24,000 nt of DNA from an uncultured Gammaproteobacteria bacterium (lineage in GTDB: Bacteria; Pseudomonadota; Gammaproteobacteria; GCA-001735895): the NCBI GenBank assembly GCA_947259305.1, contig CAMYML010000017.1:77-24076 (forward strand), given 5' to 3'. Positions within the stretch are counted from its first letter, which is position 1, and every line of letters starts with the position of its first letter. A model generated the notes under the pieces. That model made no database searches and had not been told where the DNA came from. It saw only the letters and a program-made list of their open reading frames with translations. The position numbers and the translations under genes were made by a program. This document shows positions 10,194-22,025 of this stretch, one piece after another.

Positions 10194-11042
10194 ATGGCGC
10201 AGATTTTACGCTTGCCCGCTCCGGCAAAACTCAACCTGATGTTGCATATCACCGGGCGCCGCGACGATGGCTATCATCTGCTCGAAACCGTGTTCCAGTT
10301 TATCGATCTCAGCGACCGGCTCGAATTCGAGCTCAACCTGAGCGGTCGCATCGAGCGCCGCGCGGGTAACTCGCCGGTGGCCGCGACGGACGATATCCTG
10401 CTCAAGACTGCGACTATACTGCAGACGCGCTACCAGGTTAGAGCGGGGGTCAGCATTGCGATCGACAAGAAGATCCCGATCGGCGGTGGGCTAGGCGGTG
10501 GCAGTTCGAATGCGGCTACCTGTCTGCTGGCGCTGAATCAGCTCTGGCAACTGGGCCTGTCACTGGATCGACTGGCCCGAATCGGTCTCGAAATCGGGGC
10601 CGACGTACCGGTTTTCGTCGCCGGCCGGGCGGCCTGGGCGAGCGGTATCGGCGAGCAACTGCAGCCGATCGAGCTGGAGCAGCCGATTTACCTCGTAATC
10701 GACCCGAAAATCGAGGTTTCCACCGCGCAAATATTTGCCGCGCAAGAATTGACACGCAACTGCGATCCCCTCACAATACGCGCCTTTCTGCGCGGCTCGG
10801 GCACTAATGTATGTGAACCGGTGGTACGCAAGCTGTATCCACAGGTAGCTGCCGCGCTCGACTGGTTAGGTCAGTATGCGCCAACCAGAATGAGTGGTAC
10901 CGGCGCCTGCGTATTTGCCGCCTTCGATAGCCTTGAGCAGGCAGAAGGGGTAAAATTGCGGGTTCCGAAAAACTGGACCGCGTTTGTCGCCAGGGCATTG
11001 AACGTGAACCCGGTACACCAGCAACTCGGGTTACTGGTTTGA
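10194..11042 (+). CDS. ispE: 4-diphosphocytidyl-2-C-methyl-D-erythritol kinase
   Basis: 282-aa ORF with PAPAKLNLMLHITGRRDDGYH and the GHMP-kinase motif PIGGGLGGGSSNAA. Confidence 0.93.
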   Translation: MAQILRLPAPAKLNLMLHITGRRDDGYHLLETVFQFIDLSDRLEFELNLSGRIERRAGNSPVAATDDILLKTATILQTRYQVRAGVSIAIDKKIPIGGGLGGGSSNAATCLLALNQLWQLGLSLDRLARIGLEIGADVPVFVAGRAAWASGIGEQLQPIELEQPIYLVIDPKIEVSTAQIFAAQELTRNCDPLTIRAFLRGSGTNVCEPVVRKLYPQVAAALDWLGQYAPTRMSGTGACVFAAFDSLEQAEGVKLRVPKNWTAFVARALNVNPVHQQLGLLV

Positions 11043-11052
11043 ATAGTATTAT

Positions 11053-11219
11053 TGGGCCGTCGCCAAGTGGTAAGGCACCAGGTTTTGATCCTGGCATTCG
11101 TTGGTTCGACAAAATCGCCGGGAGCGATTTTGGACGCGCGAAGCGCGGCCCTGCAGGATGGCCGAAGGCCGTCCGGAAGGGCGAAATACAGGATGTATTT
11201 CGCAATCCAGCCGGCGCGG
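11053..11219 (+). pseudogene. tRNA-Gln(UUG) copy interrupted in the T-loop, with a degenerate 3' acceptor strand
   Basis: 11053-11109 is identical to the first 57 nt of the intact tRNA-Gln. A ~95-nt insert follows, then ATCCAGCCGGC and GCGG in place of CCAGCCA. This gives a G3:G70 mismatch and no CCA. Confidence 0.6.
11110..11204 (+). repeat. Multi-hairpin insert, copy A (~95 nt)
   Basis: H1 is 11110-11132 (9 bp). M1 is 11135-11147 (CGCGC-gaa-GCGCG). M2 is 11148-11182 (GCCC...GGGC with inner GGCC-gaa-GGCC). H4 is 11183-11201 (GAAATACA-gga-TGTATTTC). Confidence 0.65.
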
Positions 11220-11281
11220 ATTGACAATCCGTTGGGGAAACTGGAGACAAAGTCAGCAGGAATGCCGGCGTAAAAGTATAT

Positions 11282-11356
11282 TGGGCCGTCGCCAAGTGGT
11301 AAGGCACCAGGTTTTGATCCTGGCATTCGTTGGTTCGAATCCAGCCGGCCCAGCCA
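11282..11356 (+). tRNA. tRNA-Gln (anticodon UUG), intact, with encoded CCA
   Basis: Cloverleaf readable by eye: acceptor TGGGCCG/CGGCCCA, D-arm GCC-AAGTGGTAA-GGC, anticodon arm CCAGG-TTTTGAT-CCTGG, T-arm GTTGG-TTCGAAT-CCAGC, G73, CCA. Closely parallels E. coli tRNA-Gln. Confidence 0.93.
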
Positions 11357-11416
11357 AATTTATCGGACGCAAGCCGAGGTAGCGCAGAAAGTGCAACCTG
11401 GCTGGATGAGAACCCA

Positions 11417-11512
11417 GGTTCGACAAAATCGCCGGGAGCGATTTTGGACGTCCGCAGGACGGCCCGCAGGGCGAAATACAGGATGTATTTCGCAATCCAG
11501 CCGGCCCAGCCA
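11417..11512 (+). repeat. 3' tRNA-Gln fragment (T-loop to CCA) carrying insert copy C (~71 nt, 11424-11494)
   Basis: GGTTCGA, then the insert, then ATCCAGCCGGCCCAGCCA (a perfect tRNA-Gln 3' end). H1 is 11425-11445, M1 is 11449-11461 (CGTCC-gca-GGACG), M2 is 11462-11472 (GCCC-gca-GGGC), H4 is 11473-11491. No tRNA 5' half lies upstream. Confidence 0.6.
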
Positions 11513-11524
11513 TACAAAGGCTAC

Positions 11525-11558
11525 TTGCCGGGACAGTGCAGAGCGTACTGTCCGGCAA
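11525..11558 (+). other. Strong hairpin between the tRNA-Gln cluster and prs
   Basis: TTGCCGGGACAGT / ACTGTCCGGCAA forms 12 bp with one bulged G and a 9-nt loop. No U-tract follows, so it is not a canonical intrinsic terminator. Confidence 0.45.
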
Positions 11559-11593
11559 ATAGCCTAAAGAGTTTTTGCAGACGAGAGAGCCCG

Positions 11594-15293: not shown

Positions 15294-15370
15294 GGCTACG
15301 TAGCTCAGTTGGTTAGAGCACATCACTCATAATGATGGGGTCCCCTGTTCAAATCAGGGCGTAGCCACCA
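15294..15370 (+). tRNA. tRNA-Met (anticodon CAU, elongator type), with encoded CCA
   Basis: GGCTACGTAGCTCAGTTGGTTAGAGCACATCACTCATAATGATGGGGTC... is nearly identical to E. coli elongator tRNA-Met through the variable loop. The T-arm CCTGT-TCAAATC-AGGG is less regular. A T7 run follows the CCA. A lysidine-modified tRNA-Ile2 cannot be fully excluded from sequence alone. Confidence 0.9.
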
Positions 15371-15397
15371 TTTTTTTCAATGACTTAGCGCACTTTC

Positions 15398-16480
15398 CTA
15401 AACTCCGACTGCTCTCAATGTAGGAGTTTTGTAGGAGATTGGCTTCGTAATCGATGCCACGACTTCACGTAAATGGTCGATTTCGACCCGGCTGTAGTGG
15501 GTCGTGATGTCGCCATTCTTGTGCCCCAACAAGTCTTTTCGGTCTTCGTTGCTCCAACCCGCCGCGCGCACCCGGCGCCCGAAGGTGTGCCGGAGATCGT
15601 GAACCCGCAGGTTGCGGAACTCCCATGGACAAGGTGCGCCGAGCTCGTCCTCGTATCGGTTCGCGGCCCGTTCCCGGCCGTGCTTCCAGCCCTTGCTGTA
15701 GACCCGGGTGCGCGGGAACACGAGATGCTCGTGCCTGCCAACCTGCTGGCGTAACACCGACTGCGCGATCGCATTCAATACCACGAAACGCTCCTGGCCA
15801 TTCTTTGAGCAATGCCCGGGCAGAATGAACAGGTCGTCGGCCTGTTGCCAGCTCCAGCGTAGCGAACACAGCTCCTGATCGCGCGCCCCGGTGTTGATCA
15901 GGAATAGAGCCATCCTGGCCAACGTGTGCGTGAGCTCCGACAGCAACAGGCGTTGTTCCTCCCAGCTGATCGGATAGGGTTTGCGCTGCGGGCCTTTTTC
16001 GAGCCGGAACAGCGGCGCCGTTTCGAGCCAGCTCAAGCCCGTATCCGCATCTCGCCAGTAGCGCGCGGCGAGGTTCAGGATGCGCCGCACGACCGCGATG
16101 TAGCGATTGATCGTGGCGGCCCTGCGACCCTTTCCGCGCATGTACTTGACGAAGGGTTCCAGCGTGCCGCTGTGCACCTGCTCCAGGTAAAGATCCCCGA
16201 TAAAGGGGTCGAGCGCGCGCAGGGCCTGGGCGTCATTGTGCAACGATTTCTTGGTTTCCTCCTCCAGGTACTTGGTTGCTGCTTCCCGGAACAGCCGACG
16301 GGGACGGATCCCGTAGAACTTGGCCCGGTGGTGCGTTGCCAGAATATGACTTAAGACCGCTTCCGCTTCTTCGAGGTCGCGCGTGCCAGTGCTGCCTTGA
16401 AGGCGTCGTCCGCCAATCCTTTTGTCGATATGCCAGATTCGGCCTCGTCGCTTGAGGCCAGGTGTCGTCTTTCTTGCCAT
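15398..16480 (-). CDS. int: Tyrosine-type site-specific integrase (P4-like genomic-island integrase)
   Basis: 360-aa ORF with catalytic-domain motifs ...INTGARDQEL..., HDLRHTFGRRVRAAG and LLGHKNGDITTHYSR. Adjacent to the tRNA. Confidence 0.92.
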   Translation of the reverse strand: MARKTTPGLKRRGRIWHIDKRIGGRRLQGSTGTRDLEEAEAVLSHILATHHRAKFYGIRPRRLFREAATKYLEEETKKSLHNDAQALRALDPFIGDLYLEQVHSGTLEPFVKYMRGKGRRAATINRYIAVVRRILNLAARYWRDADTGLSWLETAPLFRLEKGPQRKPYPISWEEQRLLLSELTHTLARMALFLINTGARDQELCSLRWSWQQADDLFILPGHCSKNGQERFVVLNAIAQSVLRQQVGRHEHLVFPRTRVYSKGWKHGRERAANRYEDELGAPCPWEFRNLRVHDLRHTFGRRVRAAGWSNEDRKDLLGHKNGDITTHYSRVEIDHLREVVASITKPISYKTPTLRAVGV

Positions 16481-16728
16481 GCTAATTCTCCGCTTGGCTT
16501 AGCCGGACACCCGTTGCGGGAGATATATTGATCTACCCAGGCGTCCAGTTCAAGTCGGTCGAAGGCGATGCCCTGCTTGCCGATGCGAATTTCAGTCAAA
16601 TACGGCCGTACCACGGCGTTGAAGCGATTGCGATCCATGCCGAGGTAGCGCGGCGCATCGCGGAAGCGGAGCAGCCTCGGTGTGATGGGTGGCGAGTGTT
16701 TCATTTGTGCGGACCGTGAATCGGGCAT
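16351..16728 (-). CDS. Excisionase/AlpA-like HTH DNA-binding protein
   Basis: 125-aa ORF with LLRFRDAPRYLGMDRNRFNAVVRPYLTEIRIGKQGIAFDRLELDAWVDQY, a MerR-type excisionase-like HTH. The last 130 nt overlap the integrase start out of frame. Start may instead be the Met at 16704. Confidence 0.65.
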   Translation of the reverse strand: MPDSRSAQMKHSPPITPRLLRFRDAPRYLGMDRNRFNAVVRPYLTEIRIGKQGIAFDRLELDAWVDQYISRNGCPAKPSGELAWQERRHLASSDEAESGISTKGLADDAFKAALARATSKKRKRS

Positions 16729-16871
16729 CTACAGATGGGTCAAGGTAGCATCAAGGTGGCACGAAAACTTGTTCGAAAGCTCACCTCTGGAGGGGGTTTT
16801 TCGAGCAAGTTAACGGGACTTAACGGTGACAAACTGGTGGTTTCGCGAACGAACCCCGGGGAGCACCACTA

Positions 16872-17123
16872 ATGGTAGAAACGACGAGTTCCTGCGCAAC
16901 GCCGCTGGCGCAGCAAATTACCGAACGCTACGGCCTGTTGCTTTCGCAGGCCCAGCTGGCGGAACTGCTGGGCCGATCGGCCGACGGCCTGCGTTACAGC
17001 CTCAAATGCCCGAGCGATTCGAGCACGCGCGCGCTGAAGGCCTGCGGACGCAAGGTCGGGCGCCGGGTCTATTACCCGGCCGCCGAGGTCGCCCGGATCA
17101 TAATCGGTGGCGGCGAGTCATGA
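16872..17123 (+). CDS. Small HTH regulator, PrtN-like (pyocin-activator family)
   Basis: 83-aa ORF with LSQAQLAELLGRSADGLRYSL...RKVGRRVYYPAAEVARII. GGGGAG RBS. Its stop overlaps the next ATG (ATGA at 17120-17123). Confidence 0.6.
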   Translation: MVETTSSCATPLAQQITERYGLLLSQAQLAELLGRSADGLRYSLKCPSDSSTRALKACGRKVGRRVYYPAAEVARIIIGGGES

Positions 17124-17833
17124 GCAATACGATCATCCGCGCCCCGCGCCGTCACCGCTTCGTCGTCATGGACCAGCGCGCGGTCGAGGACGATCGCCTG
17201 TCCTGGGCGGCCAGGGGGCTGCTGTGCTACCTGCTGTCCCGCCCGGATGACTGGAAGGTGCTGGTCAATGATCTGCGCAAGCGCGGCAACCTGGGGCGTG
17301 ACGGGATTTACCGGCTGCTCAGGGAACTCCGCGAGCACGGCTATGCGCGCTTCCAGCGCTTGCGCGACAAGCATGGCCGCATCCGCGGCGGCATTTACTT
17401 TATTCGCGAGATCGCCGATTCACCATATCCGGATTTGCCGGATACGGTTTCGCCAGATACGGCTGCACCGGGTCCGGCAAACCCGGGAGCATTACCTAAT
17501 ACGGACTTAAACCTAAAAAGAACTACTACTACAACACCCACTACTACCAAAGGGGGTAGTAGTAGTGGTGAAAATGAAAACCCTGCCGTGTTGTTCGCCC
17601 CGTGGGTCCCCGCCGAACTCCAGGATGCGGCTCGGACCATGGTAGCCGAGCTCGATCCGGCCGAGGCACAGACCGTGATCGACGAATGGGCATGCTGCAT
17701 GGCGCTGGAGAAGATCGATATATCACCGCTCGGCTATCTGCAAGCCATGGTCAGGCGATATCAGGAAGGCAATTTCGGATCGAACCTGGCAAAGGCCATG
17801 GCTGACATTCGAGTGAAGCAGTTGGACGAGTAG
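17120..17833 (+). CDS. Winged-helix replication-initiator-like protein (HTH_36 type)
   Basis: Starts MSNTIIRAPRRHRFVVMDQRAVEDDRLSWAARGLLCYLLSRPDDWKV..., has a low-complexity linker TTTTTPTTTKGGSSSGE, and is translationally coupled to the upstream ORF. The ORF-track N-extension (16826-17119) overlaps the PrtN-like gene in another frame and is rejected. Confidence 0.65.
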   Translation: MSNTIIRAPRRHRFVVMDQRAVEDDRLSWAARGLLCYLLSRPDDWKVLVNDLRKRGNLGRDGIYRLLRELREHGYARFQRLRDKHGRIRGGIYFIREIADSPYPDLPDTVSPDTAAPGPANPGALPNTDLNLKRTTTTTPTTTKGGSSSGENENPAVLFAPWVPAELQDAARTMVAELDPAEAQTVIDEWACCMALEKIDISPLGYLQAMVRRYQEGNFGSNLAKAMADIRVKQLDE

Positions 17834-17871
17834 TGCACAGTGCAGCGATTTAGCGTCTAAATCGGCAGGGG

Positions 17872-17913
17872 TGTCGAATTTCGACAGTCTGATTGCCGCT
17901 TGAACGGTTCAAG
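17872..17913. promoter_or_regulatory. Two perfect 7-1-7 palindromes, candidate protein-binding sites
   Basis: TGTCGAAtTTCGACA (17872-17886) and CTTGAACgGTTCAAG (17899-17913), 12 nt apart, just downstream of the Rep-like gene. Confidence 0.4.
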
Positions 17914-18017
17914 TTCCCAACATTGCGCCCGACGATCAAATAACCTGTGAACGTCGATGATAACGAAAGATCGGTGAAAGCAGCGTGGCGGTCGAAAGCC
18001 TGGCCTGATCCGAAGGT

Positions 18018-18058
18018 GGCCGCGTCACTACAGAGCGCAGCGCGGTAGTGACGCGGCC
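18018..18058. repeat. 14-bp perfect GC-rich inverted repeat (hairpin/cruciform)
   Basis: GGCCGCGTCACTAC (18018-18031) and GTAGTGACGCGGCC (18045-18058), with a 13-nt loop. Confidence 0.55.
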
Positions 18059-18699
18059 ATAATCGTGACCTAAGTGCGAGCCGTGCCTGGATATTCCGGA
18101 AATTCGCGCGGATGCCGGCTGGATTATGGCGTGAAAAATCGCAGGCCGGACGATATACTACAGGCAGCTTTTGAATTCATCCGCGGCCACTGCGGCAAAG
18201 TGGCAACCAAGGCACCGCCGGATCGTGAGACCGGTGCCACGGCGCAAGCCGCGATCCATCTTCGATATCGGGTAGTAGAAGTATTGGTGCTACCCAACTT
18301 CAATCCCGGACAGCTTCGATAACGCTGTCCATCCAAACAGGCATCCGCCTGTTCTTTAACGCGAGCCGCACCAGGCGACGGTCTTTGACCGATCGGCTAC
18401 CGCGCTCATTTTCCAAACCCGCAGGCCTCGCCTGCATCTTTCAAAGGAGGTGTAACCACACTCGAAAACCGCCCGTACGGGCATGTTGGATGGCGCTGGA
18501 TTCTTCCCGTACCGGGAACATCAGCGTTGCCTCGGACCAGGCATTATCAGGTCGTTTTGGGGGTCGTGCCCCGTGACCGTATCGCGCGCCCTGAGCGTTG
18601 TTGAAAACAACGCGAGGAAGTGCCCTTGGGGTGCAAGCGGGTCCGTCAGCTCCGGCTGCCGGACAGGTCGGAAACACTAACCTGAAAGGAAAGTACACG

Positions 18700-19567
18700 A
18701 TGAGAGACCTGAACTACCAACTGAAACAACTCTGCCGACACTGCCGGGAGGGCAGCTACGCCACCCAGGCCAAGCGCGAGCGGATGCTGACCCTGATCGC
18801 CAACCAGCTGCACGAGCTGGGCTATCGGGGCATGCGCGCAAGATCGCTCAAGCCGAAACACATCGAGGCCCTGCTCGAGCGCTGGCGCGAGCAGGAGCTC
18901 TCGATCGGCACGATCAAGAACCGCATGGCCGCAATCCGATGGTGGGTAAATAAGGTGGACAAGCGCAACGTAGTGGCGCGATCGAACGAACACTACGGCA
19001 TCCCGGACCGGCGCTTCGTCACCAACGAATCGAAATCGAAGACCGTGACCCAGGAGCAACTGGAGAAAGTCAAAGACGAGCACGTACGCATGAGCCTGGA
19101 ACTGCAGCAGGCCTTCGGCCTGCGCCGCGAAGAGGCGATGAAATTCCAGCCAAGCTTCGCTGACCGGGGTGACCACCTCGTGCTCAAAGCGAGCTGGACC
19201 AAGGGTGGCAAGGAACGAGTCATACCGGTCCGGACCCAGGAACAACGCGACGTGCTCAACCGGGCGCGTCGGCTGGCCGGTTTCGGCTCCCTGATCCCGA
19301 GCAACCGCAATTACGTGCATCAGATGCGCGTCTACGAGGGCAACACCCTGCGCGCCGGACTCTCCCATATGCACGGGCTGCGCCATGCTTATGCCCAGAA
19401 TCGCTACGAGAATCTGACCGGCTGGCCATCACCGGCTGCGGGTGGCCCTGCATCCAAGACATTCACCCCCGAAACAACGCGAGGCCGACCGTCAGGCACG
19501 GCTCACCATCAGCCGCGAGCTTGGTCATGAGCGCGAAGCCGTCACCACCGCCTACTTAGGAAGATGA
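18700..19567 (+). pseudogene. Second tyrosine-recombinase-family gene (Integrase_1-like), frameshifted before the catalytic Tyr
   Basis: ATG 18700 follows AAGGA. Contains FGLRREEA and HGLRHAYA motifs. After the C5 run at 19466-19470 the conserved tail PKQREADRQARLTISRELGHEREAVTTAYLGR* continues in the +1 frame to TGA 19565-19567. The annotated frame instead ends at 19530. Confidence 0.8.
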
Positions 19568-19676
19568 GGATCCATTCGTGCACATGCCGCAATATCCTGT
19601 CTGAGAAGTCCCAGCTCCGATTTATCGCCCCAAAAATACCAAGCGTACTTATGATTTGTTGGTGTAAGGTTACCTC

Positions 19677-20420
19677 ATGAAGATTCATGTTCTGAACGAC
19701 CTGCATATCGAATTCGGCGCATTCGAACCGCCATCCACCACCGCCGATGTCGTGGTGCTGGCGGGAGATATTGGCGTGGGCCTAGAAGGTATGCGCTGGG
19801 CGCGGTCCTGTTTTGCAGACAGGCCCGTCATCTATGTGCCCGGTAATCACGAGTTCTATCATCATGACATTGCCTTGATTGATGAGCTTAAGGCATGCAC
19901 GCCAGCCCACATCCATGTGCTCAACGACAACGAGGTCGAAATCGACGGTGTGCGTTTTCTTGGCAGCATACTGTGGACCGACTTCGCCTTGTTTGGTGAG
20001 GCGGAAAAATGGTTCTCCATGCAACAGGCGCGGCAGGGGATGAATGACTTTGCGATTATTCAGAATAACGGCCGGCCCTTCACCCCGGAAGATGCCATGC
20101 AACTGCACACAGCCAGCCGGGACTGGCTGACGAACAGGCTGGCGGAACCCTTTGCCGGCAAGACAGTCGTTGTCACTCACCACTGTCCCTCATCAAGATC
20201 GGTACCCCCACGCTTTGCCAATGACCTCCTGAGCCCGGCCTTCGCCAGCAATCTTGAGGGCTTGATGGGCGGCGACCGGGTGGTGCTGTGGATTCATGGT
20301 CATACTCATGATCCATTCGATTATGAGGTAGACGGTACCCGGGTGGTGTGCAACCCACGCGGCTATGCGCCCCATGACCTGACGCCGGGATTCAGGCCCG
20401 ACCTGGTCGTGGAGATCTAA
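19677..20420 (+). CDS. Calcineurin-like metallophosphoesterase
   Basis: 247-aa ORF with the ordered motifs DLH, AGD, GNHE, THH and GHTH. Confidence 0.85.
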   Translation: MKIHVLNDLHIEFGAFEPPSTTADVVVLAGDIGVGLEGMRWARSCFADRPVIYVPGNHEFYHHDIALIDELKACTPAHIHVLNDNEVEIDGVRFLGSILWTDFALFGEAEKWFSMQQARQGMNDFAIIQNNGRPFTPEDAMQLHTASRDWLTNRLAEPFAGKTVVVTHHCPSSRSVPPRFANDLLSPAFASNLEGLMGGDRVVLWIHGHTHDPFDYEVDGTRVVCNPRGYAPHDLTPGFRPDLVVEI

Positions 20421-20450
20421 ACGACAGCTAAAACCTTAGACTGAATGTTT

Positions 20451-20496
20451 GTGTATAAGTATTGACATATAATAATAAATGTCGATACTTATACAC
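20451..20496. promoter_or_regulatory. abiE promoter/operator: 18-bp imperfect palindrome containing TTGACA
   Basis: GTGTATAAGTATTGACAT (20451-20468) and ATGTCGATACTTATACAC (20479-20496), with one mismatch, flank ATAATAATAA. TTGACA is at 20462-20467 and a GATACT -10 candidate at 20484-20489 (16-nt spacer). Confidence 0.5.
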
Positions 20497-21102
20497 ATGA
20501 CCAAAGAGACTACGACAGAACAGGTGCTGGAACTCGCAAGGCGAATGGGTGTGCTGCGGGTGCGTGACCTGACATCACGGGGGATTCACCCGGAATATGT
20601 GCGACGTCTATGCAAAAAAGGCCTGCTTGTGCGTACCGGCCGAGGGCTCTATGTAGTGGCGGACGCCGAGATTTCGGTCCATCACGGCCTGGCGGAGGCG
20701 TGTAAGCGGGCGCCTCATGGGGTGGTCTGCCTACTGTCCGCGCTCCAGTTTTATGAGCTTGGTACACAGAGCCCCTTTGAAGTATGGATGGCGCTGGATC
20801 GTAGAGCGGCACGGCCGCGTATTGACTACCCACCGCTGCGCATTATGCGCTTTTCCGGTGAGGCACTAACGGAAGGCGTGGAAGAACATTCGATCGAAGG
20901 TGTTAAGGTCAGGCTCTACAATCCGGCAAAGACCGTGGCGGATTGTTTCAAGTACCGCAACAAAATCGGACTTGATGTTGCACTGGAGGCGCTGCGCGAT
21001 TGTCGTGAACAGAAGAAATGCAGCAATGATGATCTCTGGCGCTATGCAAAGATCTGTCGCGTGGCGAATGTCATGCGCCCTTATCTGGAGGCAACCGCAT
21101 GA
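20497..21102 (+). CDS. abiEi: Type IV toxin-antitoxin system antitoxin AbiEi
   Basis: AbiEi_4-like N-terminal wHTH (VLRVRDLTSRGIHPEYVRRLCKKGLLVRTGRGLY) and C-terminal domain. Start is ATG 20497, or ATG 20479 inside the operator arm. Its stop overlaps the abiEii ATG. Confidence 0.85.
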   Translation: MTKETTTEQVLELARRMGVLRVRDLTSRGIHPEYVRRLCKKGLLVRTGRGLYVVADAEISVHHGLAEACKRAPHGVVCLLSALQFYELGTQSPFEVWMALDRRAARPRIDYPPLRIMRFSGEALTEGVEEHSIEGVKVRLYNPAKTVADCFKYRNKIGLDVALEALRDCREQKKCSNDDLWRYAKICRVANVMRPYLEATA

Positions 21103-22025
21103 CCAAGGACCGGCCTGCCAACCTCCCGGCATCTATTCGTCAGCGGCTGCTGAATCTGAGTATCAGTCGTAACGAAGACCCAAACCTAACCCTCACGCGC
21201 TATGCCCTGGAACGGCTGTTGTACCGGCTTGCGCATTCTGAGTACGCAGGGCAATTCATACTCAAGGGCGCCATGTTGTTCGCGATATGGATGGAATCGG
21301 CGCATCGGCCGACGCGTGATCTGGACCTGCTAGGCTTTGGTGATGCCACCAGCGAAAGGTTGACTGAGATTTTCCAGCGGCTTTGCAGTGTGGAAGTCGA
21401 GCCTGATGGACTGACATTCGACGCCCAAAGCGTGCGCATCTCCGAGATACGAGAAGGGCAAGGGTATCCGGGGCAACGTGTGAAATTTGTTGGACTGCTG
21501 GGTACCGCCAGGATCCCGGTGCAGATCGATGTGGGTTTCGGCGACGCGGTCACGCCAGAAGCGATAAAGATCAACTACCCAACGCTGCTCGATCTGCCGG
21601 CACCCCAAATGCGCGCCTATCCACCTGAGACAGTTGTTGCCGAGAAACTTCAGGCAATGGTGACCCTGGGTATGCAGAATAGCCGTATGAAGGATTTCTA
21701 CGATCTTTGGATCATTGCCAGACAGTTTTCCTTCGACGGTGTATCACTGGCGGCGGCTGTCCAGGCGACCTTCAATCGCCGCCAGACAGCTATTCCCAAC
21801 TCCATTCCGATCGCATTAAGTGAAGAGTTTTCAACGGATGAGCACAAGGCCAGGCAATGGAAAGCCTTTCTCGCACGCAGCCAACTGGAAGGGCCAGATA
21901 TCGGGCTCTCACACGTAGTTAACGAACTTCGTACTTTCCTCATGCCCATACTTGATTCACTTGTAAATGCTGAAGATTTCAATCACTCGTGGGAGAATGG
22001 TGGGCCTTGGGAAGCCAAAGGATAA
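21099..22025 (+). CDS. abiEii: Nucleotidyltransferase toxin AbiEii (DUF1814)
   Basis: 308-aa ORF with FILKGAMLF...RPTRDLDLLGFGD and later VAEKLQAM, matching the AbiEii/AbiGii family. ATGA overlap with abiEi. Confidence 0.88.
   Translation: MTKDRPANLPASIRQRLLNLSISRNEDPNLTLTRYALERLLYRLAHSEYAGQFILKGAMLFAIWMESAHRPTRDLDLLGFGDATSERLTEIFQRLCSVEVEPDGLTFDAQSVRISEIREGQGYPGQRVKFVGLLGTARIPVQIDVGFGDAVTPEAIKINYPTLLDLPAPQMRAYPPETVVAEKLQAMVTLGMQNSRMKDFYDLWIIARQFSFDGVSLAAAVQATFNRRQTAIPNSIPIALSEEFSTDEHKARQWKAFLARSQLEGPDIGLSHVVNELRTFLMPILDSLVNAEDFNHSWENGGPWEAKG

Follow-up and report, generated by a model that had tools for sequence, protein, structure and literature searches.

A four-hairpin module around a gammaproteobacterial tRNA-Gln gene and its kinship with RtT RNA

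Why would an intact tRNA gene stand between pieces of itself that carry the same chain of hairpins? A 24,000-nucleotide (nt) stretch of DNA from an uncultured Gammaproteobacteria bacterium (contig CAMYML010000017.1, positions 77 to 24,076; hereafter the window) raises this question between its ispE and prs genes, where a tRNA-Gln gene lies between two copies, A and C, of a small hairpin-rich module. We consider it quite probable that the two copies are units of a diverged subfamily of RtT and belong to a co-transcribed, processed, structured RNA. The RtT family was first seen as 178-base-pair (bp) repeats after E. coli tyrT and is labelled "RtT sRNA" by NCBI; it has been annotated for decades without a function, a structure or an evolutionary picture. 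What is already known is thus the RtT kind, and what is new is a widespread subfamily that has not been modelled.

Two modules beside one tRNA gene

Both ARAGORN and Rfam call a single tRNA at the locus, an intact tRNA-Gln(UUG) with encoded CCA (11282–11356, plus strand; Rfam 62.2 bits), and both module copies lie on the same strand as this gene. Copy A, upstream of it, opens with an exact duplicate of tRNA positions 1–57 (11053–11109, plus strand) that ends in the GGTTCGA of the T loop. With three further leader nucleotides this part forms a 60-nt perfect direct repeat (11050–11109 = 11279–11338), gives a partial tRNA match of 24.3 bits, and is identical to tRNA-Gln at 30/30 positions on the 5' side. 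Module A (95 nt; 11110–11204, plus strand) follows immediately after GGTTCGA, within the T loop, and is succeeded by a degenerate tRNA 3' part, ATCCAGCCGGCGCGG (11205–11222, plus strand). This 3' part lacks CCA, agrees with the tRNA-Gln 3' end at 13/18 positions (74% in a repeat comparison), has a damaged acceptor strand (CGGCGCG, with a G3:G70 mismatch) and continues into a small hairpin, CGGATT/AATCCG. The spacer from copy A to the intact tRNA (11223–11281, plus strand) is fast-evolving and ends in the duplicated leader (..AGTATAT).

Copy C has a different construction, without any tRNA 5' half. Between the intact tRNA and module C lie 67 nt whose last bases are GGTTCGA (11417–11423). They begin with a spacer (11357–11397, plus strand) that holds DH1, a diverged second copy of the native post-tRNA hairpin of relatives, recognized by comparison with related loci L124, L129, L130 and L131. 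The remainder is the 5' arm of an RtT-type unit (11398–11423, plus strand), in which CTGGCTGGAT pairs with ATCCAGCCGG (10/10 complementarity) and which is followed by a conserved GAGAACC..GGTTCGA forming a GAACC/GGTTC hairpin. Positions 11400–11414 (GGCTGGATGAGAACC) are an imperfect inverted copy of the T arm that had escaped the first-pass annotation of this DNA; their first part pairs with ATCCAGCC, and they include a motif, GGAUGAGAAC, that is likewise conserved in E. coli RtT. Module C (71 nt; 11424–11494, plus strand) then leads into the 3' end of the unit, ATCCAGCCGGCCCAGCCA (11495–11512, plus strand), which is the last 18 nt of tRNA-Gln with CCA at 100% identity (18/18 with 11339–11356).

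Each module is a chain of hairpins, H1, M1, M2 and H4. In module A these comprise H1 at 11110–11132, an M1 stem CGCGC/GCGCG, an M2 with an extra nested hairpin, and H4 at 11181–11203, with GGA in both the H1 and the H4 loop. In module C they comprise H1 at 11424–11446, an M1 stem GTCC/GGAC, M2 as GCCC-GCA-GGGC, and H4 at 11471–11493. H1 (CAAAATCGC/GCGATTTTG) and H4 (GAAATACA/TGTATTTC) are the same in both copies, and each pattern occurs twice in 24 kb against a chance expectation of 0.04 and 0.08, respectively. Folding of the two regions returns the hairpin chain (z = -4.1 and -5.1 relative to shuffled sequence). The first-pass annotation had described the tRNA, its partial copies, the inserts and the identity of H1 and H4, and every one of these elements is present. 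Folding also reproduces two finer details that it gave, an M2 extension confined to copy A and a closing helix, CUGGCUGG/CCAGCCGG, in copy C.

The strongest argument for functional constraint comes from syntenic lolB-ispE-(tRNA-Gln)-prs spacers of six relatives; the closest named ispE homologs are in metagenome-assembled genomes (MAGs) labelled Gammaproteobacteria. L124 and L126 (ispE protein identity 88% and 84%) have no module, L122 (93%) and L129 (89%) have copy A only, L130 (81%) has copy C only, and L131 (76%) retains the duplicated leader and a relic of the copy A spacer. Where a copy is present, it is nearly unchanged. Module A is 98.9% identical to its ortholog in L122, where ispE DNA is 94% and the adjoining spacer 95% identical, and 97.9% identical in L129, where the corresponding values are 86% and 69%. 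Module C is 98.6% identical in L130, with ispE DNA at 81% and the adjoining spacers at 80–84%. The modules thus evolve at about the rate of tRNA itself. Because their identity exceeds that of both ispE and the spacers, functional constraint on the whole module sequence, including its loops, is a better account than a decaying insertion. The orthologous copies also keep their M1 types (CGCGC in A, GTCC in C) and the M2 extension, which makes A and C old paralogs that were repeatedly lost, probably by way of the 60-nt and 18-nt direct repeats.

A widespread family with covarying stems

A scan for the H1 pattern (CAAAATCGC-N5-GCGATTTTG) over species-representative genomes returned at least 120 loci. 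All family counts given here (129 to 136 modules, about 100 loci, their contexts and strands) are drawn from loci among the H1 matches listed. Among those, most matches are in Gammaproteobacteria of many orders, and a few, in Firmicutes or Archaea, are due to chance. Carriers are found in Steroidobacteraceae, Chromatiales, Methylococcales, Lysobacterales, Woeseiaceae, Microbulbifer, Arenicella and others. Cultured strains with a match are Methylotuvimicrobium sp. KM1, Microbulbifer marinus CGMCC 1.10657, Rheinheimera sp. YQF-1, Pseudoteredinibacter isoporae LMG 25246, Thioalkalivibrio sulfidiphilus ALJ17, Ectothiorhodospira shaposhnikovii DSM 243 and Sodalis sp. RH13, among others. The gammaproteobacterial matches hold the whole module in a constant order, which reads (G)A, H1 with a CNGGA loop, RAC, a variable M1, (G)CCC-GNA-GGG(C), a variable H4 with a GGA apex, and G(U/C)AA. 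The core of about 72 nt consists of four consecutive hairpins: H1 with its CNGGA loop, M1 with a GNA loop, M2 as CCC-GNA-GGG, and H4 with a CA(N)GGAUG apex. Some modules have another H1 stem sequence under an unchanged loop.

We trained a covariance model, R1, on ten equal-length copies, and a second, R2, on 129 modules with no E. coli sequence among them. At E <= 1e-5 there are 129 modules in about 100 loci, and the context analysis uses 136 modules from R1 hits. Two to four copies occur in 28/97 loci, and tandem head-to-tail modules occur. Copies A and C score 80.1 and 93.8 bits with R1 and 77.8 and 91.7 bits with R2, and with filters off the covariance models find no further module in the window. 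The module is present both elsewhere and in the syntenic spacers of relatives; the first-pass annotation had held that absence from them would reduce it to an inert scar. A full-text literature search with the H1 sequence found no paper.

The stems covary throughout the family. In a model-fitted alignment of 145 distinct modules, standard pairs fill 90.6% of cells, compared to 71% for shuffled partners and 33–46% for slid partners. Both partners change in each of the 26 pairs, and 581 cells are compensatory. GC, CG, AU and UA replace one another freely in M1 and in upper H4, and at its lower positions H4 has either tandem G.A/A.G or Watson-Crick pairs. The two compensatory M1 swaps reported between copies A and C in the first-pass annotation are therefore real and typical of the family, since double-sided changes occur at every pair, and the variants are kept in orthologs. 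Covariation and ortholog conservation together support its proposal of selection on a folded nucleic acid rather than random decay. On the module strand G.U pairs outnumber A.C pairs by 52 to 36, a weak hint that the module strand is the folding strand.

The loops are conserved as well as the stems. The H1 loop bases G, G and A reach 99, 96 and 99%, and the H4 apex C-A-(N)-G-G-A-U-G reaches 96, 86, 97, 95, 100, 65 and 98% at its specified positions, so that the GGA loop nucleotides are 95–100% conserved. Such conservation suggests a protein-binding role for the GGA loops. The immediate flanks of all copies show no general closing helix (mean 4.25 bp, control 4.06). Among T-loop units, those of the downstream type alone show an enrichment, with at least 9/10 positions paired in 24% versus 5%. 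Three other structures were considered and set aside. A hammerhead-like core in CUGGAUGAGAAC..GGUUCGAC does not match the conserved core and has no Rfam match; an integron attC site was rejected; and a pseudoknot between the H4 loop and AUCC would have too short a linker and a flank that is missing in non-tRNA copies.

Stable-RNA genes are a recurrent setting. Within 300 nt of an ARAGORN tRNA lie 67 modules, 66 of them on the strand of the tRNA, and the tRNAs are Ser, Gln, Tyr, Arg, Pro, Asp, Thr, Lys, Met, Val and Gly. The GTTCGA seen before both window copies is not a fixed flank, as the first-pass annotation had wondered: the T-loop sequence TTC(G/A)A precedes 52/136 modules. Partial tRNA-Ser copies hold the module in the D loop at L004, L033, L043, L052, L088 and L104, and partial tRNA-Ser(UGA) copies hold it in the anticodon loop, right after CUUGA, at L047 (1444–1522 and 1604–1682) and L101 (3881–3953). 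The L101 pseudo-tRNA has a second module in its T loop.

Wherever flanks are available, an intact tRNA of the same identity adjoins the tRNA-linked copies. Downstream units carry no tRNA 5' part and end in the last 18 nt of the tRNA, which match at 18/18 in 22/34. Upstream units belonging to a tRNA have a 5' side matching at 30/30 and, in all seven, a 3' side matching at 8–14/18. In the window and at L101, L114, L004 and L005 both kinds form a sandwich of upstream unit, intact tRNA and downstream unit, with perfect outer and degenerate inner tRNA halves. The arrangement resembles a single tRNA interrupted at the T loop by a cassette made up of one module, the intact tRNA and another module.

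Other stable RNAs host the module as well, again in the orientation of the host RNA for 5S rRNA, the 23S-5S spacer and group II introns. In the rrn operon of Sodalis sp. RH13 (L113), minus-strand units (1603–1672, 1767–1836, 2216–2285 and 2488–2563) place the module between the two strands of 5S rRNA helix I and end in the 5S 3' end. One more module occupies the 23S-5S spacer immediately before a 5S gene, and those of L019 and L109 come just after 5S. In three group II intron copies (L086 5646–5720 and 6934–7008; L021 7368–7444) the module sits in sense in a peripheral hairpin of domains I–IV, where the Rfam D1D4-3 alignment displays it as an insertion of about 70 nt after UCUGAAGGA. Further modules occupy assorted intergenic hairpins. 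Members of two orders, L067 and L018 (Methylococcales) and L069 and L089 (Thioalkalivibrio), have a similar non-tRNA upstream flank, ..CTTTTGG(A/T)TACTTTTCTT(T)GGACAAGCAA(A)GA. L018 and L067 also have a second module in opposite orientation about 30 nt away.

Kinship with RtT and competing explanations

The Rfam model of RtT RNA (RF00391) aligns with window positions 11385–11512 across its full length, 1–130 (23.5 bits, E = 0.034). The shared parts are GGAUGAGAA, GGUUCGA, CCCGNAGGG, GUAAUCC and the tRNA 3' end, with 11398–11423 falling on model positions 15–46. The match also holds in reverse. The E. coli K-12 tyrT-tyrV locus contains four RtT units, one annotated rttR, that score 133–137 bits with the Rfam model. 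R1 matches three of their cores in register (22.8, 21.2 and 17.3 bits); R2 matches all four (27.7, 25.9, 21.7 and 17.5 bits; E = 4e-4 to 0.056) and gives no score in that locus outside them. Primary-sequence similarity is too low for BLAST, and blastn of copy C against E. coli genomes yields chance-level matches alone. Among the candidates of the first-pass annotation was a tRNA-linked repeat left by recombination, comparable to the repeats after E. coli tyrT. The reciprocal models make this correct as homology rather than analogy; the tRNA-linked repeat stands, and the notion of a mere leftover falls, as the modules evolve about as slowly as tRNA.

RtT RNAs, which are freed from tRNA operon transcripts, have been detected in both E. 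coli and Actinobacillus as RNAs (PMC4986893, where the discrete RNA of E. coli is credited to Bosl and Kersten 1991). They are annotated and expressed in Thioalkalivibrio (PMC8092127), differ in number between strains with no established function (PMC7542023), and stand beside various tRNAs in Enterobacteria and Pasteurellaceae (PMC4986893, PMC8092127, PMC7542023 and a 2024 bioRxiv mobilome preprint).

By analogy, we infer that the window units would be transcribed on the tRNA strand within an ispE-tRNA-prs transcript and that tRNA-maturation nucleases, using the tRNA-derived ends, would release them; the released, folded RNA would then be what selection acts on. The module itself occupies the loop of a helix duplicated from the adjacent stable RNA, here the T arm of tRNA-Gln, and units are probably gained and lost by recombination between tRNA-derived direct repeats. 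The processed small RNA listed among the first-pass candidates is plausible on the same E. coli precedent. About 275 nt before copy A, within the 3' portion of ispE, a sigma-70-like promoter match (TTGACA-17-CACAAT, 10/12; 10749–10777) might drive the tRNA cluster. On the plus strand ahead of prs we found no intrinsic terminator-like site.

Several observations weigh against assigning these units to RtT as a transcribed, processed RNA. Copy C, at 23.5 bits, stays below the RtT gathering score of 45 bits, copy A has no match to the Rfam RtT model, and none of 18 module-bearing related loci reaches the gathering threshold, which is why current annotation misses the subfamily. The Rfam search proposed in the first-pass annotation accordingly had a split outcome, with tRNAs alone in the window at gathering thresholds and the RtT match at an E-value threshold. 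Since E-values across the two families are modest, what ties the units to E. coli RtT is their collinear architecture together with weak reciprocal matches. H1 of the window is a 9-bp CAAAAUCGC hairpin with a CNGGA loop, whereas E. coli has a short CUCG/CGAG stem, and the H4 apex CA(N)GGAUG of the new family is not found in E. coli. Many modules lie away from any tRNA, and non-tRNA modules are oriented about 50/50 relative to neighbouring genes by a crude open reading frame (ORF) test that is unreliable in GC-rich MAGs. The asymmetry of perfect outer and degenerate inner tRNA halves is not explained by decay or gene conversion alone. Finally, the fitting of the covariation alignment to a model leans toward structure and inflates its figures; the margin of pairing over the controls is nevertheless very large.

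Could copy A instead be a true intervening sequence, expressed and relieved of its T-loop insert to give a functional tRNA-Gln? The position of the insert, exactly inside the T loop with the T stem closing it, would fit, and ARAGORN accepts the tRNA left by in-silico excision in the window, at L041 and L087 (Ser), at L108 (Arg) and at L110 (Pro). Yet in every such restorable case an intact gene of the same identity follows 106–192 nt downstream, all seven upstream-type copies have a degenerate 3' acceptor, the G3:G70 mismatch and missing CCA would burden copy A itself, and copy C has no 5' half to join. We know of no bacterial enzyme system that splices T-loop inserts. Hardly more credible is that tandem duplication and recombination left an inert scar, devoid of a selected role, beside the tRNA. 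The 60-nt and 18-nt tRNA-derived direct repeats that bound the units fit such a scar, as do relatives with no module, A only or C only. It is largely refuted by modules far more conserved than spacers and protein-coding DNA, by covariation across the family, and by the same module in more than 100 unrelated loci across orders. Adjoining intact tRNAs and ortholog conservation effectively exclude both explanations, the intervening sequence being the less probable of the two.

A non-autonomous mobile DNA element of the PATE, MITE or REP type is also unlikely, if less remote. Here a transposase recognizing hairpins in single-stranded DNA would insert the module after (TC)GA in hairpin loops, and covariation would reflect DNA hairpins. 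The module resembles IS200/IS605 PATEs and REP/RAYT elements in being small, hairpin-rich and multi-copy, without terminal inverted repeats or an obvious target duplication, and in following a short motif: A precedes 131/136 modules and GA 101/136, and among exact-H1 copies TCGA precedes 42/86 and GA 63/86. Multiple copies per genome and locus, head-to-tail tandems, contexts as unrelated as T, D and anticodon loops, 5S mimics, group II introns and intergenic hairpins, and variable presence among close relatives would all suit such an element. Against it, we saw no Y1 or other transposase among the window ORFs scanned, and searches of plasmid and phage collections returned no module. IS200/IS605 ends need a guide sequence, and H1 starts at the junction itself, leaving no room for one; nor does the module show the single fixed tetra- or pentanucleotide target and set-back subterminal hairpins of PATEs. 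Its flanks are tRNA halves specific to the host, with the intact gene always spared, its strand is tied almost without exception to the host RNA gene, and its loops are as conserved as its stems. Unlike dead insertions, orthologous copies stay 98–99% identical under strong purifying selection while their flanks diverge. The IS200/IS605-PATE-like element proposed in the first-pass annotation is therefore not supported.

The surroundings of the repeats supply further context. Before prs, outside the repeat, lies the native downstream hairpin DH2 (11518–11565, plus strand). The two diverged forms of the native post-tRNA-Gln hairpin (11372–11405 and 11518–11565 in the window) flank copy C in the window and in L130; relatives without copy C have one form or an intermediate, and DH2 follows the single tRNA in L122 and L126. 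Farther along, tRNA-Met(CAT) (15294–15370) is followed by a tyrosine integrase gene (15398–16480, minus strand), then by a second integrase-like ORF (18598–19530), a metallophosphoesterase and an AbiEi/AbiEii type IV toxin-antitoxin pair (20479–22025). The region 15294–22025 looks like a genomic island integrated at tRNA-Met, 4 kb away from the repeats and separate from them; the recombinases of the window are confined to it.

Putative CsrA sites and comparison with known systems

What might the conserved loops bind? One tentative proposal, to which we assign a low probability, is that the module is a CsrA/RsmA-binding domain riding on precursors of stable RNAs (tRNA, 5S rRNA and group II introns). 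Each unit would offer two putative sites, a canonical one at the H4 apex, C[A(N)GGAU]G, and a near-canonical one in the H1 loop, C[CNGGA]G. At about 45 nt apart they would suit one CsrA dimer, and arrays of two to four units would form a sponge. The module does carry several GGA motifs in hairpin loops. CAGGAUG at the H4 apex conforms to CAGGA(U/A/C)G, the repeat consensus of CsrB, and the RsmE site (A/U)CANGGANG(U/A) is matched by CA(N)GGAUG. The conserved GGA bases of H4 and H1 and these correspondences make CsrA/Rsm binding a specific hypothesis. Our low rating reflects the E. coli RtT units, which are without these loops, and a literature search that found passing co-mentions of both terms and no paper linking CsrA to RtT function. 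A related idea, that the module is the missing Rsm sponge of Xanthomonadales, was dropped because RsmU is already described in Xanthomonas (PMC7694677).

If CsrA binding were true, sponge abundance would track stable-RNA transcription, coupling growth-rate or stringent control to the Csr/Rsm regulon, and RtT, an RNA with no assigned function since 1978–1991, could acquire a definite biochemical role, in this subfamily at the least. Independently of that, the RtT family reaches far beyond enterobacteria and includes a widespread subfamily that the Rfam model misses. At its heart is a portable four-hairpin core with clear covariation and near-tRNA conservation that sits in loops of copies of whichever stable RNA lies close by, its two GGA loops being the most conserved unpaired bases. 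A defined annotation model, culturable carrier strains and a specific binding hypothesis make an old orphan RNA tractable. If the module is only a tolerated passenger, the result is still a useful, ordinary annotation correction, and nothing is overturned.

Among known regulators, CsrB, CsrC and RsmX-Y-Z likewise present GGA at hairpin apices, and module units occur in arrays of up to four. These RNAs have no sequence or Rfam similarity to the module, whose units form part of stable-RNA precursors and have no dedicated gene under GacA control. RNAs from tRNA 3' external transcribed spacers (such as 3'ETS-leuZ) and rRNA intervening sequences are functional or tolerated segments released from stable-RNA precursors by maturation nucleases; the module differs from them in belonging to a repeated family and in having a conserved multi-hairpin core. 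AaHKsRNA22 (Rfam RF02902, Aggregatibacter sRNA 22) is matched weakly by the 5S-linked units of Sodalis L113, at 28.5 bits and below its gathering score of 39.8, and by nothing in the window. Those same units match R2 at 42–48 bits and share the layout of tRNA-linked units, with 5S helix I strands replacing the tRNA ends.

RtT itself is the closest comparison. In both families the unit adjoins a tRNA gene on the same strand, may be tandem and varies in number between strains. An RtT unit ends in the exact last 18–19 nt of the tRNA with CCA, as copy C does and copy A does not. Its 5' arm is complementary to the T-stem and acceptor 3' strand of the tRNA (GGGGAAGG in E. coli, CTGGCTGG in the window). 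After the arm come AUGAGAA and GGUUCGA (GGAUGAGAA..GGUUCGA), then H1, M1, CCCGAAGGG and H4, a hairpin chain that includes CCCGNAGGG, and finally GUAAUCC and the tRNA 3' end with CCA. Beyond this common plan, full-length 5' tRNA copies like copy A, D and anticodon loops, and sites outside tRNA loci also harbour the new modules, settings that to our knowledge are undescribed for RtT.

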